Positions 50,317 through 63,696 of a DNA stretch of 64,000 nt are shown in pieces. Origin of the DNA: Acidimicrobiia bacterium (lineage in GTDB: Bacteria; Actinomycetota; Acidimicrobiia; Spongiisociales; ZC4RG35); the NCBI GenBank assembly GCA_040510135.1, contig JBEVJN010000061.1:18469-82468 (forward strand), given 5' to 3'. The notes under the pieces are model-generated. The model searched no databases and was not told where the DNA came from. It worked only from the letters and a program-made list of their open reading frames with translations. Made by a program: the position numbers and the translations under genes. Position 1 is the first letter of the stretch. Each line of letters opens with the position of its first letter.

Positions 50317-51006
50317 TCAATCGTGACAGAGTTGGGCGAACCTGCTGGCCTCGATGCAGGACTGACCCGGGATCACCGGCCGGTCCGGGGGCACGATCAT
50401 CGTCGTGGTCGTCGTGTTCGGTGCCGATGTGGTGGTGGTCGAGGGGGTGGTCGTCGTCGGTGCCGGGGCGGCCGGCTCGCCTCCCTCGTCTGAGGGCGGT
50501 GCTGTGGTGTCCGGTGAGTCCGGTGGGGGTGGCGGCGCCTCGGTCGTCGGTGGGGCGGTCTCCCCCATCTTCATGAACACGACGGTGACGTACAGCGTTC
50601 CATCGCTGTCGGTGTCGGTGCCGACACCGACATAGTTGTAATCGCCGAGGATGTTGGCGGCGTGCCCCGAGGAGTTCATGAACGCCTGGTGGAGTGATGA
50701 CGGCGATTGGCCTCTACCGACGTTCTCGCCGACCTGTGACCAGCCACTGCCTGCGGCCGCCGATAGCTCGCTCGAGCTCGAGTGATAGATGTCGCCGGCT
50801 GCGATCATGTCCTGGGTGTGATTCCTGGCGTGGGATTGGAGACCGCCGTCGACCTGCAGAGACCCCAGCCCGTTGCTGGCTCTGGTCGAGTTGATCAGTG
50901 AGACGAACTCGCTCTCGGTACCCGAATCCGCTGTAGCGGCGACTCCGAGAGCAGTCGAGGCGAATACGACCAAGAGCAGCGAGAGCCAATGCTTCTTCCC
51001 GGGCAT
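50317..51006 (-). CDS. secreted CAP/SCP/PR-1-like domain protein with Thr/Pro-rich tail
   Basis: Signal peptide WLSLLLVVFASTALGVAA. CAP region INSTRASNGLGSL...HSSSSEL...GENVG...SSGHAANILGDYNYVGVG. A TTTPSTTTT linker precedes a Cys-containing C-terminus. Confidence 0.8.
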   Translation of the reverse strand: MPGKKHWLSLLLVVFASTALGVAATADSGTESEFVSLINSTRASNGLGSLQVDGGLQSHARNHTQDMIAAGDIYHSSSSELSAAAGSGWSQVGENVGRGQSPSSLHQAFMNSSGHAANILGDYNYVGVGTDTDSDGTLYVTVVFMKMGETAPPTTEAPPPPPDSPDTTAPPSDEGGEPAAPAPTTTTPSTTTTSAPNTTTTTMIVPPDRPVIPGQSCIEASRFAQLCHD

Positions 51007-51058
51007 TGGTTATTCATCGGCGCCGGGCCGAAATCGCTTTAGCTACCGCCGAACGGGA

Positions 51059-51940
51059 TCAAATCCCGAACATGACCTCGCGCAGGCTGATCACGCTCGA
51101 CTCGAGCGTGACCGGGTCGAGGCGCATCGATCCGAGACGAAGGCCCTTCATCCCTTCTCCGGTGTTTGTCATCACTCTGAGACCGTCTTCCTCGTTGCTC
51201 AAGATCCCGAGACCGAGACAACCCCCGCCCTCGTCCTGCACACCGACCAGCACATCGGCGAGGCGGCCCAGGTTGAGACCCATTGGAAGCGTTGGCGCGA
51301 AGACGGTCGGGCGGACCTTCCATCGATCCAGTGGAGGCGCGAGCGCCCGGGCAAACGCCTCGTTCCTCCGCTGGGCCCTCTCGTCCGGGGAGATGGGCAT
51401 CACGTTCGGGTCGGCTGGCGTGACGGTTACCTCCATCCCGAGAAACCGGCGCAGCATCCCCACCACCGGTTCCATCTCACCACCCCGCTGCAGGGCGACC
51501 ACCTTGTCTGGCCGGCACAGCTCGGCTTTGTGGTACTTCAGCGTCTCGCCGGCGACCCCGGAGACGACGGCGGTCGTGTCGAGGATCACCAGTTCGGCCA
51601 TTTCCCTTGCCAGGTCCACCATCGCAGCCGTGGCGACGACCTGTTGCAGCACGAGGCGTGCCGGGGAGATGGTGCCTACGAAATGGAGCCGGTCCGGTGT
51701 GTTCACGTCGTCGAGATCCTCTGGAGAGCGGAGCACCTTCAATCCGACACACGCCGGGGGGCCGATAGTCGAGTTGCCCACGTCGGCGTCCACGATCGCC
51801 ACCGTCCTGCCCGCACCGAGGGCGAGACGAGCCGCTTGGAGGGCCAAGGTCGTCTTTCCCGTGTCGACGCTGCCCATGAGCATCGCCACCCGTGCTCGGG
51901 ACACCTCCCTCGCGACTCCGTCGTGGCTGGCCTCGGACAT
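51059..51940 (-). CDS. Clp1/Grc3-family P-loop protein (putative polynucleotide 5'-kinase)
   Basis: VAMLMGSVDTGKTTLALQAARLALGAGRTVAIVDADVGNSTIGPPACVG matches the Clp1 P-loop block (GxxxxGK[ST]T ... vDlDpGQ). The ATG at 51940 avoids overlap with the divergent gene; the ORF extends to 51970. Confidence 0.7.
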   Translation of the reverse strand: MSEASHDGVAREVSRARVAMLMGSVDTGKTTLALQAARLALGAGRTVAIVDADVGNSTIGPPACVGLKVLRSPEDLDDVNTPDRLHFVGTISPARLVLQQVVATAAMVDLAREMAELVILDTTAVVSGVAGETLKYHKAELCRPDKVVALQRGGEMEPVVGMLRRFLGMEVTVTPADPNVMPISPDERAQRRNEAFARALAPPLDRWKVRPTVFAPTLPMGLNLGRLADVLVGVQDEGGGCLGLGILSNEEDGLRVMTNTGEGMKGLRLGSMRLDPVTLESSVISLREVMFGI

Positions 51941-51961
51941 CGCGGCAATATAGGACCACGC

Positions 51962-52795
51962 ATGACTCACAACGCACTCCCCATCAGCTTCCTATCCGAC
52001 TTCGGGCATGCCGACGAGTTCGTCGGTGTGGTCCATGGGGTGCTGGCGAAGCTGGCCCCGGAGTCACGGGTCATCGACGTGGGCCACGGGACTCCGAGGG
52101 GCGATGTGAGGGCTGCCGCTCTCAGCCTGACCCGGGCCATCCAATATCTGCCTGAGGGTGTCGCCCTGGTCGTGGTCGACCCGGGCGTCGGCTCCGAGCG
52201 CAAGGCGCTGGCATTGGAGACGGACTGGGGCTTCTTCGTCGGTCCCGACAATGGAGTCCTGTCGCCGGCGGTGGCCATGGTGGGCGGGGCAAAGGTCATG
52301 GTCTCGATCGACAATCCGGAGGCGAGGATCCCCTCACCCGGCGAGACCTTTCACGGCCGCGATGTGTTCGCCCCTGCGGCGGCCCTCCTCGCCTCGGGCG
52401 AGGCCACGATCCAGGATCTGGGCGCCGAGGTGGGTCCCGATGCCGTGCAGCCGCTACTGCTCCCCCTGCCCGAGACCCAAGGAGCTCTCGTCACCGGCGA
52501 GGCATGGTGGGTGGATCGGTTCGGGAACGTTCAGACCAACATCGGGCCCGAAGACCTGGCTGCGGTCGGTCTCTCACCCGGGTCTGTGTTGACCATGAGG
52601 GTGGGCGCGACTCTCCACACGATCCCATGGGCCGTTGCCTACTCCGAAGTGGAGCCCGGTGAAGCGCTGGTTCATGTCGACTCTGCCGGGCTGATCGCGA
52701 TCGCAGTGCGGGATGGCGCCGCCGATGAGGAATTGAACCTCTCGGCCGGGGTGGCGGTCACCCTGGCGGGGACAGGATCGACGTCAACTGGATGA
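51962..52795 (+). CDS. SAM hydroxide adenosyltransferase / SAM hydrolase (DUF62, chlorinase-fluorinase-like) family protein
   Basis: ATG at 51962. Motifs ISFLSDFGHADEFVGVVHGV...VVDPGVGSERKALA...GPDNGVLS...TFHGRDVFAPAAA. Confidence 0.85.
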   Translation: MTHNALPISFLSDFGHADEFVGVVHGVLAKLAPESRVIDVGHGTPRGDVRAAALSLTRAIQYLPEGVALVVVDPGVGSERKALALETDWGFFVGPDNGVLSPAVAMVGGAKVMVSIDNPEARIPSPGETFHGRDVFAPAAALLASGEATIQDLGAEVGPDAVQPLLLPLPETQGALVTGEAWWVDRFGNVQTNIGPEDLAAVGLSPGSVLTMRVGATLHTIPWAVAYSEVEPGEALVHVDSAGLIAIAVRDGAADEELNLSAGVAVTLAGTGSTSTG

Positions 52796-52925: not shown

Positions 52926-53080
52926 TACACACGAAGGCGGGTTCCGTACCGTGGGGCGGGCTGGGAGGCTATCCGTTCACACCTTGGACGAACGTGCCCT
53001 AGGTATGAGGGGAACGGCGACCCTCCTTCTTGCATGCGTGTCCATTATCGGTCACCCACGGTGGTTACTTGAACAATTCT

Positions 53081-53323
53081 GTGTTCAGATTTCTGATTAG
53101 GCCCGGATGCCATCTCTGCGACGAGTCTCGGCCGGTCGTCGACAAGGAGGTGGCACGGGTCGGAGGCATCATCGAGGAGATCGATATCGACATCGATGAT
53201 GCTCTGACCAGGGATTATGGGTTGCGGGTGCCGGTCGTTCTCGGGCCGGGCGACATCGTGCTCGCGGAGGGGAAGATCGAGGCCCGGGCCTTGCGACGGG
53301 CTCTGCGAAGACTGGGGACCTAG
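53081..53323 (+). CDS. glutaredoxin-like (DUF836-type) thiol-disulfide protein
   Basis: The GTG at 53081 gives VFRFLIRPGCHLCDESRPVV...YGLRVPVVL, a CxxC thioredoxin-fold mini-protein. The upstream part of the 53030 ORF is unlikely to be coding. Confidence 0.7.
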   Translation: MFRFLIRPGCHLCDESRPVVDKEVARVGGIIEEIDIDIDDALTRDYGLRVPVVLGPGDIVLAEGKIEARALRRALRRLGT

Positions 53324-53344: not shown

Positions 53345-54385
53345 TCACGGCATCCGGGCCGCGGCGGCTTCGGCGCCGCTCACCGTGGTCGTGGGCTCTC
53401 CCTCCGCCGGCGGTTCCCCATCGGGTGTGGTCTCGCCTGGAGCGCCTCCCCCTTCGCCTTCCGCCGGGGCCAGGCCGCAGTCGGTGAGAGTCTCGGCAGA
53501 ATCGGCGCCACCGAAGCGGACCCGTTCGAAGGTGACAACCGAGGCCAATTGCTCCTCGGTGAGACTCGCTCCAAAGGCTGGCATACCGCCCGCGATCGGC
53601 TTGCCGGTGTCCCCATAGCTGCTCTCACCCGAGTCCAGGAAACCTTGCGAACCGAGTGTGACCCACTCGATGTGATCGGCACACGATCCGAACGTGGTGA
53701 GAACGCCACTGAAGGCCGGGCCGACCCCACCTTGCCCCTGGCCGCCATGACATCCGTCGCAATTGGCCACATTCATATAGACGTCCTCGCCCATGGCGAC
53801 GAAGTCGCCGCCCCCTCCACCGGCGCCGGAACCGGTGAACTCGGTGCCGTCGCAGTTGACCACCTGGCCGGTGATGACGTTGGTGGCGAGCTCGGTGGCC
53901 TCACCGCACTCACCGGTGGCGGAGCCGCCGAGAGCGAAGAGTGCGAAGGCGGGGATGATCAGCATGACCGCGGCCAACCAGCGGGGGATAGCCAGATTCG
54001 TCCTCTCCCGAATGCCCGCGGTGGGAACCGTGATCACCTCGGGAAGTCCGGCAGCCTCGGCCGCGGTCACCTCGGCCGGGATCGGGGAGCGGGTCACCGG
54101 GCCGGCGGGAGCCCCGGAGGGTGCGGCAGCCGGCGGGACCGGGACTTCATCAGCAATCTCCTCCTCATCATCGGCAGCCGTCTCGGAGTCAGTCGCTGCT
54201 TCCTCAACAGCGGGTGGAGGTTCGGAGGGTGCTGACGACGCGCCAGCGACCGACCCGCCCCCCGCCCAAGCGGCCAAGACCTCGTCGACCGACATCCCTG
54301 TCTCGGCGGCACGGGCGGCGGCAGAGCGCTGGACGATGGCCTCGGGGATGCCGAGAGCGACAGCGGCGGCGCTGAGGTCGCTCAT
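53345..54385 (-). CDS. membrane-anchored monohaem class I cytochrome c (CcoP-position gene)
   Basis: N-terminal cytoplasmic motif GIPEAIVQRSAAARAAETGMSVDEVLAAWAGG, an acidic/Pro linker, TM helix WLAAVMLIIPAFALFALGG, haem motif CDGCHG and Met-ligand region GGMPAFG. ATGA overlap with the upstream gene. Confidence 0.8.
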   Translation of the reverse strand: MSDLSAAAVALGIPEAIVQRSAAARAAETGMSVDEVLAAWAGGGSVAGASSAPSEPPPAVEEAATDSETAADDEEEIADEVPVPPAAAPSGAPAGPVTRSPIPAEVTAAEAAGLPEVITVPTAGIRERTNLAIPRWLAAVMLIIPAFALFALGGSATGECGEATELATNVITGQVVNCDGTEFTGSGAGGGGGDFVAMGEDVYMNVANCDGCHGGQGQGGVGPAFSGVLTTFGSCADHIEWVTLGSQGFLDSGESSYGDTGKPIAGGMPAFGASLTEEQLASVVTFERVRFGGADSAETLTDCGLAPAEGEGGGAPGETTPDGEPPAEGEPTTTVSGAEAAAARMP

Positions 54386-55236
54386 GGCGTGGTGGTCTCC
54401 TCGGTGGGTGTCTCCCCTTCGGGGGCAGGCTCCTCATCGGTGGGGGCCTCGTCGGATGTTTCCTCTTCGGGCGCTGCGGCCTCCTCGAGGGTCGCCGACT
54501 CGCTCATGTACGCCACCAGGGCATCGAGATCCTCGGATGAGAGCGACAATGACGGATGGTCGTCGAGCCCGAGGATGATCGCCTCGATCTGACTGGCCGT
54601 GATCCGCGCTCCGACATTGGACAGATCCGGTCCGAATCGCCGCGATCCGAGCACCTGATTGGTGTCGTTCAGCGACACCGCCCCGAGACCGACATCGGCC
54701 ACCACCGGACGAACCATCTGCGTGTGGCAGGAAGCACAGCCGACCGACTGGTAGATCTCTTGCCCCTGCAGGGCCGTCTCGGTGTAGGGCAGGTCGCTGG
54801 TCCGCGCGCCCGGGTTCTCGGTGGGCAACGAGGGACCGATCACACCGACCAGGAAGAGGGCGACGAAGAGCCCCACCGCCCCGACCAGCACTGCGATCGG
54901 GTTGTCGGACTCTCCAACGAGTACCGGTGGCTTCCCCGGAGGAGTCGGGGCGGTGACCGGAGGAACCCGCGGCGTTTCGATCACTGGCGTTGGCGTCGGT
55001 GACGGAGCGGCGTCCGACTCTGCGGGCTCTTCGGTAGACGTCGCCGGCTCCTTGGCAGCTTCGGGCTCCGCTGGCGTGGGTGGCGCGGGTGGAGGGATGT
55101 CGCCACCGCCGGCCCAAGCGGTCAGCACGTCGTCCACGGTCATCCCGGTCTCTTCGGCGCGAGCCGCAGCAGAGCGCTCCACGATGGCCTCCGGGATGCC
55201 AAGAGCGGCGGCTGCAGCCGCGCTCAGCTCACTCAT
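54382..55236 (-). CDS. CcoO/FixO-like monohaem cytochrome c subunit
   Basis: The ATG at 55236 gives the same N-terminal motif (GIPEAIVERSAAARAEETGMTVDDVLTAWAGG) and a TM helix. ALQGQEIYQSVGCASCHTQMVRP...GSRRFGPDLSNVGAR...DLDALVAYM matches the FixO family as I recall it. Confidence 0.8.
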   Translation of the reverse strand: MSELSAAAAAALGIPEAIVERSAAARAEETGMTVDDVLTAWAGGGDIPPPAPPTPAEPEAAKEPATSTEEPAESDAAPSPTPTPVIETPRVPPVTAPTPPGKPPVLVGESDNPIAVLVGAVGLFVALFLVGVIGPSLPTENPGARTSDLPYTETALQGQEIYQSVGCASCHTQMVRPVVADVGLGAVSLNDTNQVLGSRRFGPDLSNVGARITASQIEAIILGLDDHPSLSLSSEDLDALVAYMSESATLEEAAAPEEETSDEAPTDEEPAPEGETPTEETTTP

Positions 55237-56746
55237 CTGCGTCCCGATCGCCGCTGGCGTCCGGACCGTAGACCAGGACCTCCTGGGGGACAGCCTTGCC
55301 CGCGGTGACAGTCCCGATGACGGTGGCCGCATACGCCAGCTGACCGATGAAGGCCACTATGCCGAATCCAAAGGCGACGAGCATCAGGACCTCGGCCGAC
55401 CCTGCACCGGCGGCCCATCCCTCGCCGGCGTTCACGTAGGCAGCGCTGTTCGACCCTGCCACCCACGAGTAGCCACTGACCAGGCCGGCCCCGATCATGC
55501 TCACGGTGACCCCGCCCACCCCGACGACGGTCCAACGGTTGAACGACCTAGGCCGATCCAAGGTGGCCGGCTCGCGGCCGGCGACCCGCGGCAATGCCTC
55601 GAACACGACGCCCGCAGCCAGCAACACACCAACGCCGTACAACGCCCCGTACTCGATCGCCTCCCAGTAGGCAGTGAGTGCGGCAATCGACCCCACTGAG
55701 GGGAAGGCGGCGAAGGCAGCGAGGATGGCCACGGCTACTCCTAGGTAGAGGCCGACCACGCCTGAGACCACCCCCGGCTTGTCCCTCAATTCTTCCCAGT
55801 GCCCCTGCAGGGTCAGCGAGGCGTTGGCGGCGTTGGCCAGGGCGCCGATGGGGAAAGCGAGGCCCAATGCGGCCGACACGCCGTCGATCCAACCCGGACC
55901 CGGGCCAAAGACGAGTTGCGCCGACCCCCACCAGGCGGCGGCGAAGCCGAGCGACCAAAAACCAACCGAGGCCAGCTGGCGTGAGGCGAGAGGTATGTCC
56001 AACTCCTTGACCAGCGTGTAGTAGAAGAGCCCGCTGCCAACGGTGAACACCCAGAGCGTTACGAATCCGGCGGAGAAGAAGAGATCGGAGTATTCCGCGC
56101 CAAGGGAGCTCACGAATGGCAGGTTTCCCGCCGTGTAGACGAGATAGAGCAAGGGCAACCAGACCACTCCGCCGATCACGAACCACAGAGTGACGAAGCT
56201 CCGTTTCTCCTCCCGACGCCGGATGGTCATCATGGTGACCGCGAACGGGATGGTCAGCACCGCCAGCATCGGGAGGTGGAGCCACCAGGGCAGGCCGAGC
56301 GGCTGCCGCCCCTCGCCGAACCCGAAGAGGATGGCCAGGAGGTCGAGCACGACGAGGCCCGAGACGCCCAGGAGACCGAGATAAGCCAGCTCCTTCCGCC
56401 AGAGTCGGGCGCCGGTGAGCCGGGGGAGGACGTAATAGATTCCGCCGGCCAGCGTCAGCACCAAAAAGCCGAGCATGACGGTGATGTTGGCCATCGACTC
56501 GGCCCGGCCGTAGCTGATCGGGGAAAGCCCGGCGAATCGCAGCGAGAAGAGGGCGAAGAGCTGGAAGATGCCGGCCAACACCAGAAACAGCGCACCTACC
56601 AGGAAATGGGCAACGGCGACGCGGTCCTCATCTCCGGCCCCGAGGAGGGCCCTGATGTCTGCAGTTTGGGTTGCGGCCAAGGGTTCCCTCGTCGCGGAAC
56701 GGGACGGCGGGAGCATAACTACTTCCTCGATTCCTTCTGCAGCCAC
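55229..56746 (-). CDS. CcoN-like (haem-copper oxidase subunit I fold) 12-TM protein lacking the canonical histidine ligands
   Basis: 505 aa with about 12 hydrophobic segments and an 8-nt overlap with the CcoO-like gene. Several stretches resemble CcoN blocks, but the whole protein has only three His (VAHFLV, WWLHLP, LQGHWEE). GTG start at 56746, alternative ATG at 56716. Confidence 0.7.
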   Translation of the reverse strand: MAAEGIEEVVMLPPSRSATREPLAATQTADIRALLGAGDEDRVAVAHFLVGALFLVLAGIFQLFALFSLRFAGLSPISYGRAESMANITVMLGFLVLTLAGGIYYVLPRLTGARLWRKELAYLGLLGVSGLVVLDLLAILFGFGEGRQPLGLPWWLHLPMLAVLTIPFAVTMMTIRRREEKRSFVTLWFVIGGVVWLPLLYLVYTAGNLPFVSSLGAEYSDLFFSAGFVTLWVFTVGSGLFYYTLVKELDIPLASRQLASVGFWSLGFAAAWWGSAQLVFGPGPGWIDGVSAALGLAFPIGALANAANASLTLQGHWEELRDKPGVVSGVVGLYLGVAVAILAAFAAFPSVGSIAALTAYWEAIEYGALYGVGVLLAAGVVFEALPRVAGREPATLDRPRSFNRWTVVGVGGVTVSMIGAGLVSGYSWVAGSNSAAYVNAGEGWAAGAGSAEVLMLVAFGFGIVAFIGQLAYAATVIGTVTAGKAVPQEVLVYGPDASGDRDADE

Positions 56747-56795: not shown

Positions 56796-56813
56796 TTGTG
56801 GTAGAAACCACGT
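56796..56813. promoter_or_regulatory. candidate Rex-type operator in the divergent intergenic region
   Basis: TTGTGGTAGAAACCACGT has GTG-N8-CAC core spacing and palindromic GTGGT/ACCAC arms. It lies in the 99-bp region between the two respiratory operons, and rex is encoded at the end of the cluster. Confidence 0.3.
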
Positions 56814-56845: not shown

Positions 56846-57451
56846 ATGTATCGCCTCGCAGAACTGAGCGACAGCAGACGCAAGAGCATCGGATGGGGAC
56901 TGCTCGGTCTCGGCTTCGTCGGTCTCGTGGCGGCGGTGATCTGGATCCACTACACGAGCCTCCCTCCGGAGCAAGACGCGGGCATCTTCGATTGGATACC
57001 TAGCAATCACTTGTTGAAGGGTGTCGGTTATCTGGTCGTGTTCGGCGCCTCGCAGATGATGGTGGTTGGTGCGTTGTTCATCTGGGTGCTCAACCAGAGG
57101 ATGACCTGGGCCCGTGCGCTCTTCGCTTCCTTCGTCACGTGGATCGAGCTCGTCATCATCTTCGGGATGGTTCCCTCGGAGTGGCTCAACTTCGCCCAGA
57201 CCGATCTCGACTGGTCGTCACAACGGGTGGCGGTCACGATCCCGCCGTTCCTGGTGCTGGGCAACGAAGTCCAACTCAGCTGGGCCGCCATCAAGGACTC
57301 GATCTCGATGGGCTATCACCTGGTGATGCTGGCGGCGGCGGCGGTGTTCGCGCTTCAGCTGCAGAAGATGAAAAAGGGCCCGCCGGCCTCGGCCGAGAAG
57401 GCCCCGCCCCGCTCGCCTTACGGGCGTCCGCTGGTCAGGGGTGAAGGCTGA
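56846..57451 (+). CDS. four-TM membrane protein, first gene of the cytochrome b/Rieske operon
   Basis: 201-aa ORF whose stop overlaps the ferredoxin start (TGATG). TM segments include IGWGLLGLGFVGLVAAVIWI, VGYLVVFGASQMMVVGALFIWVL, LFASFVTWIELVIIFGMV and MGYHLVMLAAAAVFALQL. I recognise no motif. Confidence 0.65.
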   Translation: MYRLAELSDSRRKSIGWGLLGLGFVGLVAAVIWIHYTSLPPEQDAGIFDWIPSNHLLKGVGYLVVFGASQMMVVGALFIWVLNQRMTWARALFASFVTWIELVIIFGMVPSEWLNFAQTDLDWSSQRVAVTIPPFLVLGNEVQLSWAAIKDSISMGYHLVMLAAAAVFALQLQKMKKGPPASAEKAPPRSPYGRPLVRGEG

Positions 57452-57900
57452 TGCCCAAGGGTGTCGTCGACGAGACGCCCCCGTACCGCGACGACTATCA
57501 GTTGGCCGTCGTAGAGGGCGACTACTTCACCGACAAGCTGCGGCCGAAGCAGTTTCTCCACATCGACCAGTCGGAGTGCATCCTCTGTGAAGGATGCGTC
57601 GACATCTGCCCTTGGAAGTGCATCCACTATCTCTCGCTCGATGCCATCACCGAAGGAGTCAATGTCGACCACCCGGGCGAGGACCCACAGAACCTCGGCT
57701 TTTTCGTGGTCGATGAGGACGAGTGCACACGATGTGCCCTCTGCGTCGACCGGTGTCCGACGAACGTCATCACCCTGGGCAAGTTCGAGGGCTCACTTGC
57801 CGATCAGGCCGCCGAGCTCGGTCTCGACCGTCGCCCCTGGGATTTCGACACCGGGCAGCGTGACTTCAAGAATGGATACGCCTACGGGATGCGCTGGTAG
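57451..57900 (+). CDS. 2x[4Fe-4S] ferredoxin-domain protein
   Basis: Two canonical cluster motifs, [12 protein letters not shown] and [12 protein letters not shown], in a 149-aa ORF. Confidence 0.85.
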
Positions 57901-57908
57901 GAGGCGGA

Positions 57909-58685
57909 TTGGCCAACGGCAACGGTAAGACCGGCATCACGGACAAGATCAAAGAGGTCAACGACAAGCTCTGGGGCTCCCAGGTCGCGGAGTCGATCCT
58001 CCGTCCGGGCTCGCCCTTCAAGAAGGGTTACTCGGACAGCCCGAGGAACCGGTCGTATGTGGTCATGAACAACGTGCTGTATCACCTCCACCCGGTGAAG
58101 GTGAAGCGGCACGGCGTCAAGCTTTCCTACACGTTGTGTCTGGGCGGTCTCAGCTTCTTCCTCTTCATCCTCCTCACCATCACCGGCATCTTCCTCATGT
58201 TCTATTACACGCCGTCCGCGGAGACTGCCTATGCCGATATCGAGGCGCTGTCCACCAACGTCGCCTTTGGCTCCCTCGTGCGGAACATGCACCGTTGGGG
58301 AGCTCATCTCATGGTCCTGTCGGTATTCCTCCACATGAGCCGCGTCTTCTATCACGGTGCCTACAAGCCACCCCGCGAGTTCAACTGGGTGGTGGGCGTG
58401 CTGCTCCTCTTCCTGACCCTCTTGCTTTCCTTCTCTGGCTATTTGCTCCCCTGGGACCAATTGGCCCTGTGGGCGGTCACTGTGGGAACCAACATGGCGG
58501 GATTCGTCCCTGTGGTGGGCAATGAGGTGAAATTCGCCCTTCTGGCCGGGGTCGAGGTGTCAGGCGCCACCCTTCTCCGCTTCTACGTGCTGCACGTGCT
58601 CGCTTTCCCGTTCATCCTCGTGATCTTCCTTGCGGTGCACTTCTGGAGGGTGCGCAAGGACGGCGGCATCTCCGGGCCCCTCTAA
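57909..58685 (+). CDS. cytochrome b6-type cytochrome b (N-terminal four-helix half)
   Basis: GGAGG lies 4 nt upstream of the TTG at 57909. Helix B His pair in [17 protein letters not shown] (13 residues between). Helix D pair in [18 protein letters not shown] (14 between, b6-type). A conserved Cys sits in YTLCLGG, the haem ci position in b6. Confidence 0.9.
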
Positions 58686-58696
58686 AGGAGTCGTCA

Positions 58697-59821
58697 ATGA
58701 CAGAAATTCCAGAGAGTCTCCTCAGGAGATCGGCCGAGGCAAAGGCCAAGGCATTGGGCCTGCCTGTGGAGCAGGTGCTGGCCGAGATGAAGGGGGAGGC
58801 CCCGCCCACACCACCGCCCTCTGCAGAGCCCCCGGGTGAGCCCGAGGCGACAGTGGCGGACGAGATGGAGGAGGCTGCGGAGCGCTCCGAGGAGATCGAG
58901 GAGGCTGTGGAGTCGGTCGATGACGAGCCTGCGCCGGTAGAAGAAGAGGCGCCCGAGCCTGCGGCCGAAACCGAACCAGAGGTCGTGACCGAGAGCGCAA
59001 CCGACGTTCCCCCCGCCCCGCCCACCGAAGCCCCGCCGATCGAGGACAGCGAGGAGGCACTCACTCCCGCGGCCTCGGCTGAGTCGTCGGACGAAGCCGC
59101 GCCCGAGACAGAGGTCGAGCCTGCCGCGGCCGCGGTAGCGACCGCGGTTGAGGACCGGCCCGCCGCGGAAGGAGATGGCGGTGGCGATGGAGCCGGAGAC
59201 GGCGCGGGCAATGGGTCCGGAAACGGCGCCGGGAACGGCAAAGTGGCCGCCGTGGTGAGCACACGTCCCACCGTGCCCCCCAAGGGGACCCCGGAAGGCG
59301 TGCGGACCCAGCGTCTGCTCACCGTGGTCAAGGCCCGGGCCATCCAGACGGTCAAGGCCGAGCCAACCGACAAGGTCAACACCTGGCCCCACCTGATGCT
59401 CATGGAGTTCGGGGCGTTGCTGGCGATCACCGGTCTGGTGGTGATCATGTCGGTGGTCATCCATTCCCCGCTGCTCGACCCGGCCAACTTCAACGCCACT
59501 CCCAACCCCTCGAAGGCGCCGTGGTACTTCCTCGGCCTCCAGGAGCTTCTCTCCTACTTCGATCCGCAGATCGCCGGGGTGACGATCCCAACGATCACCG
59601 GGATCATCGGGTTCATGATGGTGCCGTATGTCGACAAGAATCCCTCGACCCGGCCCAGTGACCGCAAGTTCGCCATCGCCCTCTACTCGGTGTTCCTCGC
59701 CGGGGCCGCCACACTCACCATCTTTGGCGTCCTCTTCCGGGGCCTCGGATTCAACTTCTCCTATCCCTGGAAGGACGGGGTCTATTTCGATGACTTGAAG
59801 GACTGGGTGCAATTCGAATGA
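58697..59821 (+). CDS. cytochrome b C-terminal half (subunit IV/PetD-like) with long N-terminal extension
   Basis: AAGGAG lies upstream of the ATG. N-terminal motif IPESLLRRSAEAKAKALGLPVEQVLAEMKGE, about 150 aa of acidic/Pro/Gly-rich linker, then WPHLMLMEF...NPSKAPWYFLGLQELL (Qo-motif region) and two further TM helices. Confidence 0.85.
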   Translation: MTEIPESLLRRSAEAKAKALGLPVEQVLAEMKGEAPPTPPPSAEPPGEPEATVADEMEEAAERSEEIEEAVESVDDEPAPVEEEAPEPAAETEPEVVTESATDVPPAPPTEAPPIEDSEEALTPAASAESSDEAAPETEVEPAAAAVATAVEDRPAAEGDGGGDGAGDGAGNGSGNGAGNGKVAAVVSTRPTVPPKGTPEGVRTQRLLTVVKARAIQTVKAEPTDKVNTWPHLMLMEFGALLAITGLVVIMSVVIHSPLLDPANFNATPNPSKAPWYFLGLQELLSYFDPQIAGVTIPTITGIIGFMMVPYVDKNPSTRPSDRKFAIALYSVFLAGAATLTIFGVLFRGLGFNFSYPWKDGVYFDDLKDWVQFE

Positions 59822-60699
59822 CCCTGACCAACGCCGCCCTCTTTGCAGTCGCCGTCGTGGCGATTCTCGGGGCGGCCGGGGCATTTGCCGTTGCATATCG
59901 CCGGTCCCAGACCACCGAGAAAGCTGACCCGCTGGCCGGCGTCTCGCCGGAGACCCGCGCCGCCGACCGGTCGTCGACCGCGGTCGTGATTCCACCCCGC
60001 GTCGAGGACGTGGAGGAGACCGTCGAGGAGGAGGCCGAGGCCGAGGCCGAGTCCGAGCCGGTCGAGGTGGAGGATGACGCAGTTGTCGAGATCCTCGAGA
60101 CCCAGCGGATCGTCGAGGTCTCCCCTGAGGAAGGCGGGGTCAGCCGGCGGCAGTTCTTCAACCGCGCGATTGCCGCAACGTTTGGTGTTTTCCTCGCAGC
60201 ACAGGGTCTCTACTACCTCGCCTTCTTCTGGCCCAAGCTGACCGGTGGCTTCGGCGCGGATATCGACGCCGGGCCGGTGTCCGACCTGCGCACTCAGGTC
60301 TTCACTCCCGACGGCGCCGTGCTCCCGCTTTTCATTCCCGAGGCCCGGGCCTACCTGGTCCCTGCGCCCGAGGAGCTATCCGAGCAGTTCGAGGGCCAGG
60401 GGGTGGAGACCGACGGCCTGATGGCTCTGTACATGCGATGTGTCCACCTCGGGTGCCGGGTGCCGTGGTGCGCCCCGTCACAGGGCTTCGAGTGTCCTTG
60501 CCACGGGTCGAGGTACAACGCCATTGGCCAATACTTCGGTGGGCCTGCCCCCCGTAACCTCGACCGGTTCGTGGTGGAGAACCAGGGCGGCAATCTCATC
60601 ATCCGCACCGGCTCAATAATCCAGACGCCCCGGGCGCCGGTGTTGCTCGTCCCATACCCGCAGGGACCGAGCTGCATCAGTGCCGTGGCCGAGGCATGA
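59818..60699 (+). CDS. Rieske [2Fe-2S] subunit
   Basis: ATGA overlap with the upstream gene. Twin-arginine-like SRRQFFNRAI. Cluster boxes CVHLGC and CPCHGS. Confidence 0.9.
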   Translation: MTLTNAALFAVAVVAILGAAGAFAVAYRRSQTTEKADPLAGVSPETRAADRSSTAVVIPPRVEDVEETVEEEAEAEAESEPVEVEDDAVVEILETQRIVEVSPEEGGVSRRQFFNRAIAATFGVFLAAQGLYYLAFFWPKLTGGFGADIDAGPVSDLRTQVFTPDGAVLPLFIPEARAYLVPAPEELSEQFEGQGVETDGLMALYMRCVHLGCRVPWCAPSQGFECPCHGSRYNAIGQYFGGPAPRNLDRFVVENQGGNLIIRTGSIIQTPRAPVLLVPYPQGPSCISAVAEA

Positions 60700-62618
60700 C
60701 CGCCAACCTCATCACGGTCATCGCCCTGGTCGCAGGGATCGCCTGGCTGGGCATGCTCTTCGTGTCAGCCATCCGCAATCGCGGCGGTGAGGAGGTGGCC
60801 CCGCAACCCCGACCCGGGATCGACGCCGAGACCGTCGAGACGCGGCGGCTGGAGGGAGGGCAGAAGGCGGCGATCGCCTTCTCCGCATTCCTGGCCATAT
60901 CGCTCCCCCTCTACTTTCTCACCGAGCAGGAGCGGCAGGAGGGCTTCGTCGAGGAGTTCGCCGAGGGCTCGATCGAGCGGGGCCAGCATCTCGTCGAGGA
61001 GTTCGGCTGTTTCAACTGTCACGGACCCGAGGGGTCGGGTGGCGTTGCCCCCTATGTTGAGAAGCGCTCTGGCATCGCCGTCGAGTGGGCGGCTCCGTCG
61101 CTCAACGACGTCTTCTTCAGATACGAGGAGGACGAGGTCAACTTCTGGGTCACCTACGGTCGGGGCAACACCCCCATGCCCGCCTGGGGCATCCCAGGTG
61201 GTGGTCCGCTCAACGAACAGCAGGTCGAAGACGTGGTCAATTACCTGGCGACGATTCAGGTCACACAGGACGAGAACCTGGCCGACGTCGAGCCCGGAAT
61301 CAACACCGCGTTGGACCGGCTGGCCAACGCCGACGCCACGGTCGAGGTCGCCATCCTCGACCAACGTCAAGTGGTGGCCCAGATCGAGTCGGCGCCTGAC
61401 GACCTGGATCTCGTCGTCCCCCTTGCAACTGATGCCCGAGAAGCGCTGGACGGAGCCGGAGAAGGTATCGACACAGATGCCGACGGCATCTCCGATGCGG
61501 CAGAGAGCGAGCTCAGCGCCATCTCGGCCAAGGCGGTGGAGGGGTTCCGGATCATGGAGCCGATCGCCCTCGACCCGGAGGTGGCCGATGCCGAGCTGGC
61601 CGACGATGCTCTGGCAGCCTTGGAGCTCGCATCTCAGACCGACCCCATCGTGACAACACAAAGCCGGGCCATCGAGAGCGCCATCGAAGAAGGCACCCTC
61701 GACCCGGCGGTGGGGCTCAGCCCGGCGGCTTTGACCTCTCTGGAGGAGACCCGGGTTGCGGCGGAAGAGCTCGGCCTAGAGGTCCCCGTCGCCGTGGAGG
61801 ACCTGGATGCGGCGAACGAGTTGGTGGCTGCGCTCGATGCTGCAGGAGCCGCCGAGGAGCCGGTCGAAGGTGCAGCCGACCTGGCGGCGGAGGCGACCTC
61901 AGCGATCGAGGATGGCTCCGATCCCGATGGAGATGGGCTTTCGACGGGTGCCGAGAACGACATCAACGGCCAGATCGAAGCGGCCATCACTGCCACAACG
62001 CCGCCCGAGATCATCCCGGTCACTCTGGATCCAACCAACCCGGCCTCGGTTGGTGGGGAGCCCGATGCCGTGACCGCCAACACCCTTGTGAGCAACCTCG
62101 AGACGTTGGTCACGACCCTCTCGGTCACTGAGCAGAACCAGGATGCTCTGCTCGAAACCGCTGAGGGCGGCTTGGCCTACCTCGAGGAATCCCAACAAGC
62201 CCAGCTGTATTCGATCGATTTCGCCGGGGTGGCCGAAGCCATGGCATCCCCTCCTGAGGAGGCGGAGCGGGCAGTGGGCTTGTTCAACTCCAATTGCGCC
62301 CGGTGTCACACCGCCGGCTACAGCGCAGGTGTCCCCTACACCCAAGAGGCGGGATCGGGTGGGTTCGGGCCGGCGTTGTGGGACGGTCGGCCGACGGTTC
62401 AGTTCGGCGACGCAAATGAGGATCCGGCGCAGGATCTATTGGTCCAGTTCTTGATCAGGGGCTCCGAGGCCGAGACGCCCTACGGCATCAACGGGTTCGG
62501 TACGGGCCGTATGCCGGCCTTCGGCGCGAGCCTCAGTGTGGAGGACATCGAGCTGCTGGCCCGCTATCTCAGGGGTGGGAATATGGATGGGAAGGAGGCC
62601 ACCGTTGTTCTTCCGTGA
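60696..62618 (+). CDS. membrane-anchored dihaem cytochrome c with a large acidic insertion
   Basis: ATGA overlap with the upstream gene. Two N-terminal TM helices. CFNCHG (about aa 105-110) with PMPAWG, and CARCHT (about aa 534-539) with GRMPAFG. The intervening region is Asp/Glu/Ala-rich and carries DTDADGISD and DPDGDGLS motifs. Confidence 0.85.
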   Translation: MTANLITVIALVAGIAWLGMLFVSAIRNRGGEEVAPQPRPGIDAETVETRRLEGGQKAAIAFSAFLAISLPLYFLTEQERQEGFVEEFAEGSIERGQHLVEEFGCFNCHGPEGSGGVAPYVEKRSGIAVEWAAPSLNDVFFRYEEDEVNFWVTYGRGNTPMPAWGIPGGGPLNEQQVEDVVNYLATIQVTQDENLADVEPGINTALDRLANADATVEVAILDQRQVVAQIESAPDDLDLVVPLATDAREALDGAGEGIDTDADGISDAAESELSAISAKAVEGFRIMEPIALDPEVADAELADDALAALELASQTDPIVTTQSRAIESAIEEGTLDPAVGLSPAALTSLEETRVAAEELGLEVPVAVEDLDAANELVAALDAAGAAEEPVEGAADLAAEATSAIEDGSDPDGDGLSTGAENDINGQIEAAITATTPPEIIPVTLDPTNPASVGGEPDAVTANTLVSNLETLVTTLSVTEQNQDALLETAEGGLAYLEESQQAQLYSIDFAGVAEAMASPPEEAERAVGLFNSNCARCHTAGYSAGVPYTQEAGSGGFGPALWDGRPTVQFGDANEDPAQDLLVQFLIRGSEAETPYGINGFGTGRMPAFGASLSVEDIELLARYLRGGNMDGKEATVVLP

Positions 62619-62970
62619 GTTCTTCCGCTCGCTGTTCTCCGCCAACCTCTTCGTAACCGGGATCATCCTCACCATTGCCGCGGTGGCCTTGTTCTATGGG
62701 TCGATCTACCTGTTCAACTACACCAACCTGGGGAAGCGACTCGGATTCCTGGTCACCGGGGCTGCGGTGTTCGGCTGGCTGACCATCACCTCGATGCTGT
62801 TCGTGGTGTATGCACCACGCGGCCCCAAGCCGGCCGACATCGAGGGGCTGAACGCGTTCGAGATCAGGATCATCCCGATCACTTACCTGTTGGTGTCTCT
62901 GGTGCTCTTCCTCGCCTTCCTGGTGGCGCTGCATCAATACGAGGAAGTTCAAGAGAAATCCACGGCGTAG
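62605..62970 (+). CDS. small three-TM membrane protein, last gene of the operon
   Basis: GGAGG (62594-62598) lies 6 nt upstream of an in-frame TTG at 62605, with an alternative ATG at 62587. It overlaps the cytochrome c stop. Reads FFREFFRSLFSANLFVTGIILTIAAVALFYG...FLVTGAAVFGWLTITSMLFVV...IIPITYLLVSLVLFLAFLVAL. Confidence 0.55.
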   Translation: MFFREFFRSLFSANLFVTGIILTIAAVALFYGSIYLFNYTNLGKRLGFLVTGAAVFGWLTITSMLFVVYAPRGPKPADIEGLNAFEIRIIPITYLLVSLVLFLAFLVALHQYEEVQEKSTA

Positions 62971-62980
62971 CTGTGTCTGT

Positions 62981-63022
62981 CCGTCGTATGTGATACGACG
63001 GATCCCGTCAAAGACGGGATCC
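62981..63022. terminator. two abutting perfect hairpins between convergent operon end and rex
   Basis: CCGTCGTAT-GTG-ATACGACGG (62981-63001) and GGATCCCGTC-AAA-GACGGGATCC (63000-63022). The second overlaps the last rex codons. No U-tract. Confidence 0.45.
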
Positions 63023-63625
63023 GTAATAGCTCAACACCTGTAGCTCCATCGACAGGTCGACCTGACGCACCGAAACCTTGTCCGGCACGTTCACCCGGAT
63101 TGGTGCGAAATTGAGGATCGAGCGAATCCCATGCTCCACGAGACGATCGGCAACCTGTTGGGCTGCCACCGCGGGCACGGCAAGGATGGCGATTTCGAAG
63201 GTCTTCGACTGGCAATCGCCATCGAGCACGTCCAGATCCTGGATGATGACGCTGCCCACCGTAGATCCGATCTTCCGGACGTCTGTGTCGTACAAGGCCA
63301 CGACATCGAAGCCCCGGCGACTCAGCCCGGCGTAGTTGGCCAGAGCTCGGCCCAGGTTCCCCGCTCCGACGATCGCGACCCGTTGCCGATCGGCGATCCC
63401 GAGCTCCTGGCGAATCCGCGCCTTGAGCTCCGCCACCGAATAGCCGATCCCTCTGACCCCGTGGAAGTCGATATGGGAGAGGTCCCTGCGGACGTTGGCC
63501 GCATTGGCGCCTGCTGCGGTCGCCAACTCCTCCGAGCTGACGACATCCTTCGATGAATCCAGATCTTCCAGCAGTCGCAGATAACGGGGCAGGCGGACGA
63601 CTGTGGCCTTTGGGATTTCATTCAC
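63008..63625 (-). CDS. rex: redox-sensing transcriptional repressor Rex
   Basis: IPKATVVRLPRYLRLLEDL winged-helix N-terminus, and VAIVGAGNLGRALANY Rossmann NADH-binding motif. 205 aa. Confidence 0.9.
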   Translation of the reverse strand: MNEIPKATVVRLPRYLRLLEDLDSSKDVVSSEELATAAGANAANVRRDLSHIDFHGVRGIGYSVAELKARIRQELGIADRQRVAIVGAGNLGRALANYAGLSRRGFDVVALYDTDVRKIGSTVGSVIIQDLDVLDGDCQSKTFEIAILAVPAVAAQQVADRLVEHGIRSILNFAPIRVNVPDKVSVRQVDLSMELQVLSYYGSRL

Positions 63626-63696
63626 AAGCTCACGATAAACCGGCGCGACGTGCTCGGAATCCCCGCAGGTGAGCAGGCCTTCTAACCTCTCCTTCG

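Follow-up and report, generated by a model that had tools for sequence, protein, structure and literature searches.

The 64,000-nucleotide stretch analysed here (the window; contig JBEVJN010000061.1 of an Acidimicrobiia bacterium, G+C about 65%) carries at 56846-62970 (+) a seven-gene operon encoding a split cytochrome b, a Rieske protein, a dihaem cytochrome c, a dicluster ferredoxin and two further membrane proteins. The operon probably specifies a b6c-type menaquinol:cytochrome c oxidoreductase of the APWY clade, or subfamily G, with the ferredoxin docked on the cytoplasmic side at cytochrome b6 and subunit IV, where it would give the complex a low-potential branch. The ferredoxin is a candidate subunit of the cytoplasmic (n) side because it is homologous to the last domain of a flavoprotein whose gene holds the same position, directly before the b6 gene, in related operons. 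An additional low-potential branch had been suggested in the initial annotation of this DNA. It is the reading we favour, on the basis of the ferredoxin's homology to the dicluster domain of an NAD(P) oxidoreductase and the equivalent position of its gene.

Parts of this picture are already known. Split cytochromes b with the CxGG and APWY motifs have been described, and the anammox bacteria provide a precedent for a cytoplasmic Fe-S subunit on complexes of this clade. In the literature we covered, which was incomplete, we found no description of the stand-alone ferredoxin form, of its two membrane partners, of its ubiquity in a large group of Acidimicrobiia or of the link to a CcoN-like assembly without metal ligands.

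The seven genes and the catalytic core

The seven open reading frames (ORFs) are co-directional, lie at the coordinates and in the order originally annotated, and have a coding-like third-position GC of 0.79-0.85. Families were assigned by searches with Pfam and NCBIfam models, and b6, subunit IV, the Rieske protein and the ferredoxin were compared with their best PDB matches. The first gene (56846-57451) encodes a protein of 201 residues with four predicted transmembrane (TM) helices, the 4-TM protein. It is followed by the 2x[4Fe-4S] ferredoxin (57451-57900; 149 residues, two CxxCxxCxxxCP motifs, Fer4 families), cytochrome b6 (57909-58685; 258 residues, PF00033 at 161 bits) and subunit IV (58697-59821; 374 residues, with PF00032 at residues 262-345, the C-terminal 3-TM core). 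The Rieske [2Fe-2S] protein (59818-60699; 293 residues) matches Pfam Rieske and the NCBIfam b6f iron-sulphur subunit. The dihaem cytochrome c (60696-62618; 640 residues) matches Cytochrom_C and Cytochrome_CBB3 and has haem motifs CFNCH at residue 105 and CARCH at residue 534. The last gene (62605-62970) encodes a 3-TM protein of no known family.

Inspection of the junctions bore out the overlaps and short gaps reported earlier. The 4-TM and ferredoxin genes overlap by 1 nt (TGATG), an 8-nt gap separates the ferredoxin gene from b6, whose TTG start is preceded by GGAGG, and an 11-nt gap with AAGGAG separates b6 from subunit IV. ATGA overlaps join subunit IV to the Rieske gene and the Rieske gene to that for cytochrome c. 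The ORF of the 3-TM protein is open from 62536, but the TTG at 62605 that had been proposed as its start lies 6 nt behind a Shine-Dalgarno (SD) sequence, GGAGG, at 62594-62598. This codon is most likely the start, judging from the SD sequence and from a 119-residue homologue in a related metagenomic locus (L003) comparable with the resulting protein of 121 residues; the overlap with the cytochrome c gene is then 14 nt. Because neighbouring genes overlap or lie no more than 11 nt apart, with SD sequences in the gaps, and the set is bounded by a conserved upstream motif and a terminal hairpin (both described below), we regard the seven as one operon.

The cytochrome b is of the b6 type. Alignment to b6f structures upheld the annotated split after helix D, the histidine spacing and the haem-ci cysteine. 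The best PDB matches of b6 are the cytochromes b6 of b6f complexes (1q90_B, E 2e-46), to which it aligns as far as the common C-terminal ISGPL. Of the four haem-b histidines, the helix B pair (His128 and His142) has 13 residues between its members and the helix D pair (His229 and His244) has 14, and all four are invariant in 12 diverse sequences. Cys77 (TLCLGG) aligns to Cys35, which binds haem cn in b6f (YCIGG/YCLGG), and is predicted to bind haem ci covalently. The Arg249-Lys250 pair aligns to the IRKQ motif that lies ahead of the common C-terminus in b6f. His59 and Pro62 (LHLHP; 58083-58094), invariant in 12 diverse members of the clade, sit in a clade-specific N-terminal extension outside the region that aligns to b6 of b6f.

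Subunit IV opens with an N-terminal module of about 35 residues, continues with an acidic linker of about 190 residues rich in Ala, Pro and Glu, and ends in the 3-TM core. Here KAPWYF aligns to PEWYF of b6f subunit IV, in agreement with the APWY motif annotated for the quinol-oxidising (Qo) site. The Rieske protein has an N-terminal TM helix, an acidic loop, an SRRQFF motif resembling a twin-arginine translocation (Tat) signal together with a second hydrophobic segment, and the motifs CVHLGC and CPCHGSRY. Its best PDB matches are cyanobacterial PetC, followed by 9rk4/9rk3. CPCHGSRY resembles CPCHGSQY of PetC, and its Ser and Tyr match the pair that the Kuenenia study implicates in tuning the Rieske potential (PMC12954380). 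Cytochrome c has two N-terminal TM helices and two class-I haem domains split by an acidic insert of about 330 residues. Acidic low-complexity sequence rich in Ala, Glu, Pro and Asp occupies 58800-59370 in subunit IV (charge -35), 59905-60130 in the Rieske protein (-19) and 61265-62255 in cytochrome c (-65). Such segments also occur in the CcoO- and CcoP-like proteins encoded next to the operon, and homologues differ in overall protein length.

The names b6-like and subunit-IV-like held in the Pfam searches (PF00033 and PF00032), but the NCBIfam search led elsewhere: its best model for b6 was Geobacter ExtP, passed at 301.6 against a cut-off of 290. Subunit IV matches ExtQ weakly, and in both systems a b6-type pair occurs with a Rieske protein. 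The Geobacter ext cluster encodes multihaem cytochromes and porin-like and rhodanese-like proteins, with no ferredoxin (PMC5877670). We rejected identity with the Ext selenite/tellurite operon, as the extH-S context genes are absent from the window and the ext cluster lacks a ferredoxin. The ExtP equivalog call is a naming artefact and the name is not transferable; the pass by b6 is nevertheless a likely source of misannotation in Acidimicrobiia genomes.

Cytochrome b6f of cyanobacteria and chloroplasts supplies the best PDB matches for b6, subunit IV and the Rieske protein and has the haem-cn Cys, the 13/14 histidine spacing and ISGPL in common with the window proteins. The operon differs from b6f in that no genes for cytochrome f or PetG/L/M/N were found in it, in having APWY for PEWY and a ferredoxin gene of its own, and in belonging to a non-phototrophic host. 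The actinobacterial QcrCAB complex resembles it in its Actinomycetota host, its dihaem cytochrome c and a Rieske protein with more than one membrane segment. In contrast, the window cytochrome b is split, and the scores with the QcrCAB models fall well short of their cut-offs: 113 against 500 for QcrB (NF050120), 21.6 against 275 for the Rieske protein and 17 against 200 for cytochrome c.

The APWY clade of Kao & Hunte (2014, PMC4122944) is marked by the combination seen here, a split cytochrome b that carries the CxGG and APWY motifs. That paper places the clade in delta-Proteobacteria, Chloroflexi, Nitrospirales, Planctomycetes, two deep Firmicutes genera and Actinobacteria, describes its complexes as uncharacterised at that time and suggests that they operate in reverse. 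Within the Actinobacteria it gives a split cytochrome b, with PEWY or APWY, only for Rubrobacteridae and for Ilumatobacter, a single Acidimicrobidae strain. The initial annotation had called the architecture unexpected in an actinobacterium; with these precedents, that was overstated. The overlapping subfamily G consists of cytochromes b that co-occur with NAD(P)-binding Fe-S proteins, according to Dibrova et al. (2013, 2017). With its b6/subunit IV split and both motifs, the window cytochrome b appears to belong to this APWY/subfamily-G clade, and its nearest relatives outside its own type (Chloroflexota, Anaerolineae and other Acidimicrobiales, at 50-57% identity) come from the clade's phyla. 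It differs in its company: the portions of these papers available to us describe no stand-alone ferredoxin, 4-TM protein, 3-TM protein or CcoN-like neighbour.

The ferredoxin, its conservation and its relatives

The ferredoxin (pI 4.4) has neither a signal peptide nor a TM helix, and it had correctly been described as foreign to textbook bc1 and b6f complexes. At least 593 GTDB species representatives have a relative of it. Gene order and identity ranges were obtained by tblastn with the window proteins in the best 80 of these, which are loci from Acidimicrobiia metagenome-assembled genomes (MAGs), a few of them mislabelled; statements on gene order hold as far as each contig reaches. The genes for the 4-TM protein, ferredoxin, b6, subunit IV, Rieske protein, dihaem cytochrome c and 3-TM protein follow one another on one strand in all 80 genome loci, and also in three metagenomic loci with a window-type operon (L001-L003). 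The synteny of the ferredoxin, 4-TM and 3-TM genes with the b and Rieske genes, which the initial annotation had listed among the points to check, is thus kept in 80/80 loci, and the arrangement is therefore more than chance. Upstream lies a divergent trio of CcoN-, CcoO- and cytochrome c-like genes, and downstream there is usually a gene for a Rex-type regulator. The split b6 type is the rule in a very large uncultured group of Acidimicrobiia.

Over the 80 loci, identity to the window protein is 65-99% for the ferredoxin, 70-99% for b6, 44-97% for the core of subunit IV, 41-96% for the Rieske protein, 34-97% for cytochrome c, 30-97% for the 4-TM protein and 25-97% for the CcoN-like protein. 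The ferredoxin ties for the highest conservation in the operon, at a level that matches or exceeds that of b6. In 20 diverse homologues all eight cluster cysteines are invariant, the mean column identity is 78%, and the N- and C-terminal extensions (ETPPxRDDYQL; PW..D.G.RDFKNGY.YG.RW) are invariant or nearly so. Strong constraint that includes the terminal extensions is the pattern expected of an obligate subunit with protein interfaces.

At the level of protein clusters we found 1,791 ferredoxin homologues. The best 120 are 74-97% identical to the window protein and 129-156 residues long (mostly 147-150), and the named members among them are Acidimicrobiia or Actinomycetota. A search from the most divergent copy returned 2,231 clusters of the same kind. 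No cultured host appeared among the matches listed, either for the GTDB representatives or for the search from the most divergent ferredoxin; all were MAGs. Source databases name ferredoxin homologues NuoI or PreA.

Relatives with a different gene before b6 provide the key comparison. A b6 search of representatives at 50% identity gave 8,602 matches, and the nearest outside the window type were from Chloroflexota (57%), a second kind in Acidimicrobiales (57%), Anaerolineae (53%) and Aminicenantes (47%). In a Chloroflexota locus (L004), an Acidimicrobiales locus (L006) and a further locus (L090) the b6 start is overlapped by the stop of a gene for an NfnB/GltD-like protein of 482-666 residues, in which Fer4_20, Pyr_redox_2 and NAD_binding_8 are followed by C-terminal Fer4 domains. 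The flavoprotein gene of L004 is preceded on its 5' side by one for a formate-dehydrogenase-like molybdoenzyme. Three further loci (L005, L087 and L089) have no Fe-S gene beside b6.

Between residues 42-113 of the window ferredoxin and residues 367-456 of the 482-residue L004 flavoprotein the identity is 40% (E 8e-16). The latter stretch is the flavoprotein's extreme C-terminal dicluster domain, and the matched segments include CTRCALCYKRCPTGAITM of L004. A profile of the ferredoxin family scored 47, 37 and 24 bits with the C-terminal domains of the L004, L006 and L090 flavoproteins, and at most 18 bits with every other Fer4 protein in these loci. The best PDB matches of the window ferredoxin are FwdF polyferredoxins, including 5t5i, and those of the L004 flavoprotein are NfnA (9n5u) and 9bov/9bp5. 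By these sequence comparisons, the ferredoxin corresponds, as a separate protein, to the dicluster domain at the C-terminus of an NfnB/GltD-like NAD(P) oxidoreductase.

The anammox bacterium Kuenenia offers a published parallel. In its complexes Kuste4569-74 and Kustd1480-85 (Kartal et al.; de Almeida et al. 2016) an NAD(P) oxidoreductase is encoded directly before b6, all subunits of Kuste4569-4574 co-migrate experimentally according to earlier work cited there, and Rieske potentials above +300 mV have been measured (PMC12954380). AlphaFold 3 (AF3) models of these complexes show a cytoplasmic-side path from haem through four [4Fe-4S] clusters to FAD, and predict an additional haem b that has an N-terminal His from each b6 monomer as its ligand (PMC12954380). 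For the NAD(P) oxidoreductase subunits Kuste4570/Kustd1483, the same 2025 study names 9bp5 and 5t5i as structural homologues (PMC12954380). By the published description, the window operon is alike in its b6-type four-helix cytochrome b with a subunit-IV-like partner, in the Rieske Ser/Tyr pair, in having a cytoplasmic Fe-S gene directly before b6, and in that its ferredoxin matches the FwdF-like [4Fe-4S] part. His59 of b6 is a possible counterpart of the N-terminal haem-ligating His, going by the description of the Kuenenia protein.

There are also differences. The window Fe-S protein has only 149 residues and no FAD/NAD(P) domain, its cytochrome is a dihaem class-I cytochrome c whereas Kuenenia has hexa- or octahaem cytochromes and an HAO-like protein, and its subunit IV has three predicted TM helices against five. 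The 4-TM and 3-TM proteins are extra. The window ferredoxin is apparently a reduced form of the NAD(P)-reductase arm of the anammox bacteria.

The 4-TM gene lies directly 5' of the ferredoxin gene in all 80 loci. Both termini of the protein are predicted to be cytoplasmic. Two histidines are invariant, His35 close to the outer end of TM1 and His158 close to that of TM4, as is a loop with PSEWL (110-114)...QTDLDW, and the cytoplasmic C-terminal tail SPYGRPL is conserved. Every one of its 1003 homologues is named hypothetical. The protein matches no Pfam or NCBIfam model, although two homologues reach 24-26 bits, below the threshold of 30, with DUF7139 (PF23600). An AlphaFold 2 (AF2) model (pLDDT 73) found no Foldseek match in PDB at E<0.1, and a resemblance to NarI was rejected at a TM-score of only about 0.3. 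The 3-TM protein gave no significant family match; its gene follows that for cytochrome c in all loci that reach that far, with 51-100% identity.

Natural fusions of b6 were also considered. The sole Fer4-bearing b6 representative, P0335, was rejected as a natural ferredoxin-b6 fusion, since its gene call appears to be broken or merged; the other fused representatives join Rieske to b6 or b6 to subunit IV. A fusion of another sort occurs in the Acidimicrobiales MAG of L006, where a 787-residue protein (L006:135-2498 (-), with L006:2505-4780) combines cytochrome b, Fer4, FlpD (MvhD-like) and cytochrome c. Its gene adjoins COX1 and COX2 genes close to the operon for flavoprotein, b6, subunit IV and Rieske protein, and it resembles the 'PDWF-FeS' fusions of Kao & Hunte.

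A possible low-potential branch and its alternatives

In the mechanism we propose, b6 with two b haems and a covalent haem ci, subunit IV, the PetC-like Rieske protein and the membrane-anchored dihaem cytochrome c would form the catalytic core, and the cytoplasmic ferredoxin, the 4-TM protein and the 3-TM protein would be lineage-specific additions. The ferredoxin would dock on the n face of b6 and subunit IV and exchange electrons with haems bn and ci, possibly through an extra interfacial haem on the invariant His59. The resulting low-potential side branch would add to, or replace, quinone reduction at the n-side site. Electrons could flow outward, with the low-potential electron from quinol oxidation at Qo passing to a cytoplasmic acceptor, as anammox complexes have been proposed to do in bifurcation. 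They could also flow inward, from a low-potential cytoplasmic donor to the n-side site, like the proposed route from ferredoxin to haem cn in b6f. The host presumably uses menaquinone, the quinone type we take to be that of the Acidimicrobiia, and a menaquinone pool together with the Rieske Ser/Tyr pair would provide a large driving force. For anammox it has been argued that a large driving force can drop the potentials of the b haems enough to reach Fe-S clusters (PMC12954380). For b6f, one proposal for cyclic flow has ferredoxin donating electrons to haem cn (cited in PMC5600118).

Several points weigh against this mechanism. The placing of the cytochrome b in its clade draws on motifs and best matches, not on a tree, and the association of the ferredoxin with the complex is likewise drawn from comparison of sequences. 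Similarity between dicluster ferredoxins is partly generic, and the 24-47 bits that link this one to the flavoproteins are the best in their context but not overwhelming. The operon has no FAD/NAD(P) module, the 149-residue protein matching Fer4 families only, and no flavoprotein candidate was found in the operon or in about 30 kb upstream. An AF2 monomer model of the ferredoxin, from an alignment of 20 sequences, reached a pLDDT of only 34. The 4-TM protein has no recognisable fold and no counterpart in the flavoprotein-linked relatives. Finally, the three flavoprotein-linked relatives that we inspected lack the haem-ci Cys, which the window type has, so the n-side chemistry may differ between the two.

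This last difference can also be turned into an alternative explanation. The 4-TM protein and the ferredoxin might be maturation factors, for instance a membrane-anchored supply of reductant for attaching haem ci to Cys77, analogous in function to the CCB system of oxygenic phototrophs but unrelated to it in sequence. Phototrophs require a dedicated system on the n side to attach haem ci, and the Pfam and NCBIfam searches made no haem-ci maturation gene evident in the operon. In an alignment of 12 b6 sequences, the window type, with the 4-TM and ferredoxin genes upstream, keeps the CxGG Cys, and it is absent from the three relatives that have the flavoprotein but no 4-TM gene. We nevertheless think a maturation role unlikely. 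The ferredoxin, terminal extensions included, is conserved like b6 and is translationally coupled within a structural operon, L087 has a CxGG b6 with no annotated homologue of the 4-TM protein or the ferredoxin nearby, and the domain homologous to the ferredoxin sits in a subunit that co-migrates with the Kuenenia complex (PMC12954380). A separate, co-transcribed membrane redox module, serving the CcoN/O/P-like assembly or some other cytoplasmic enzyme and making no contact with b6, would account for the 1-nt coupling of the 4-TM and ferredoxin genes and for the place of the pair at the 5' end, beside the divergent CcoN-like operon. The two invariant histidines of the 4-TM protein could bind a cofactor. 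This seems improbable, however, when the ferredoxin gene is always directly 5' of b6, at an SD-spaced gap of 8 nt in the window, and when, in relatives with no CcoN-like genes nearby, the homologous domain is fused to the protein encoded by the gene that runs into the start of b6. The module common to subunit IV and the CcoO- and CcoP-like proteins, described below, points instead to one assembly.

The operon might also encode an ordinary forward-running complex III, in which the ferredoxin is the remnant of a flavoprotein, kept for structural stability with no part in electron transfer. The FAD/NAD(P) part has indeed gone from the operon, and the core keeps all the normal features of a Q cycle, including haem ci and Arg249-Lys250. 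A pure relic would be expected to lose ligands in some lineages, but 8/8 cluster cysteines are invariant in the 20 diverse homologues, and we consider this explanation very improbable.

Were the ferredoxin truly a subunit on the n side, as in the docked arrangement we favour, an Fe-S wire on haems bn and ci would recur across a whole clade of b6-type complexes, beyond the anammox bacteria. This clade includes a very large, mostly uncultured group of Acidimicrobiia from soil, the sea and sponges, with 593 species representatives as a minimum and over 2,000 protein clusters. With two clusters and no flavin, the complex would be a minimal natural system for low-potential electron exchange between a Rieske/cytochrome b complex and a ferredoxin. 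The same question underlies the proposal of NAD(P)H bifurcation in anammox and the long-debated cyclic flow from ferredoxin to haem cn in b6f.

The divergent CcoN-like operon and the flanking sequence

A second operon, divergent from the first and not mentioned in the initial annotation, encodes three CcoN/O/P-like proteins on the reverse strand; neither its missing metal ligands nor the N-terminal module that it has in common with subunit IV had been remarked on. The CcoN-like protein (55229-56746 (-); 505 residues, about 12 TM helices) scores 71.6 bits with COX1 and 95.6 with ccoN, against a cut-off of 583. It is followed by a CcoO/FixO-like monohaem cytochrome c (54382-55236 (-); PF02433, CASCH) and, in the CcoP position, by a second membrane-anchored cytochrome c (53345-54385 (-); CDGCH, Pfam cytochrome c). 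The start of the CcoO-like protein is probably Met33 of its ORF, which overlaps the CcoN-like stop by 8 nt. An ATGA overlap joins the second cytochrome c gene to the CcoO-like gene, and all three genes are translationally coupled.

In an alignment to solved cbb3 CcoN, the six His positions that bind haem b, haem b3 and CuB are all substituted or gapped. The CcoN-like protein has three histidines in total, and none of its His columns is invariant in 62 homologues from related loci. Because all six metal-ligand histidines are missing and the homologues have no invariant His, the protein, to judge from its sequence, cannot be a haem-copper oxygen reductase of known kind. Its gene is present in the related loci that extend far enough upstream, and metagenomic surveys that counted the neighbouring 'cbb3 oxidase' as a high-affinity oxidase would be wrong. 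We found no literature on a ligand-less CcoN, within a coverage that was incomplete.

The N-terminal module of about 35 residues (IPE..V.RSA.A.A...G..V..VL) opens subunit IV (58697-58800 (+)), the CcoO-like protein (55110-55236 (-)) and the second cytochrome c (54250-54385 (-)), and all three proteins continue after it with an acidic Ala/Pro-rich linker and a TM helix. The module has no Pfam match and is cytoplasmic by predicted topology. A hidden Markov model (HMM) built from the three copies has no other match in the window and matches the homologous proteins of L001-L003; across the 80 loci it had 77 hits to ORFs assigned to subunit IV, 63 to the second cytochrome, 48 to the CcoO-like protein, 4 to the CcoN-like protein and 23 to other ORFs. 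A common module suggests a functional link between the two operons, either as a tether within a supercomplex or as a shared docking site. A bolder possibility, which we put forward as speculation and think unlikely, is that the ferredoxin-bearing b6c complex and the ligand-less CcoN/O/P-like assembly form one supercomplex through these modules. In widespread aerobic Acidimicrobiia it would oxidise quinol through a high-potential chain of Rieske protein and cytochrome c and so drive electrons uphill onto its bound ferredoxin, as a respiratory, bifurcating source of low-potential reductant with no flavoprotein, the former oxygen reductase acting as a scaffold or ion channel.

The two operons diverge from an intergenic region of about 100 nt. 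It contains a conserved motif of 12-13 nt, TTGTGGTAGAAAC, at 56796-56808 (+), 37 nt 5' of the first start codon of the seven-gene operon. In an alignment of this region from 19 genomes, TGTGGTA.AAAC is invariant or nearly so and its flanks are variable. The motif is a candidate for an extended -10 promoter element or for an operator common to both operons. A generic sigma-70 scan found nothing at 56796-56808, and the counts from promoter and terminator scans were not above chance. At the other end, a strong hairpin at 62997-63023, which is assigned to no strand, lies between the end of the operon and the rex gene that converges on it and is probably a terminator (minimum free energy -26.5 kcal/mol, z -4.4 for 62972-63030).

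The rex gene (63008-63625 (-)) is convergent with the operon, encodes a Rex-type redox-sensing regulator with Put_DNA-bind_N and CoA_binding domains, and is syntenic in most related loci. A scan for Rex boxes found none in the promoter region of the b6 operon; the sole good match, TTGGGATTTCATTCACAA at 63610-63627 with two mismatches, lies at the start of the rex gene itself.

The CcoN-like operon is flanked by a glutaredoxin-like gene at 53030-53323 (+) and a long gene with a SAM hydroxide adenosyltransferase (SAM_HAT) domain at 50873-52795 (+). In L001-L003, too, SAM_HAT genes are found close to the locus, as is a glutaredoxin-like gene in L003, so the synteny may reach past the respiratory genes.

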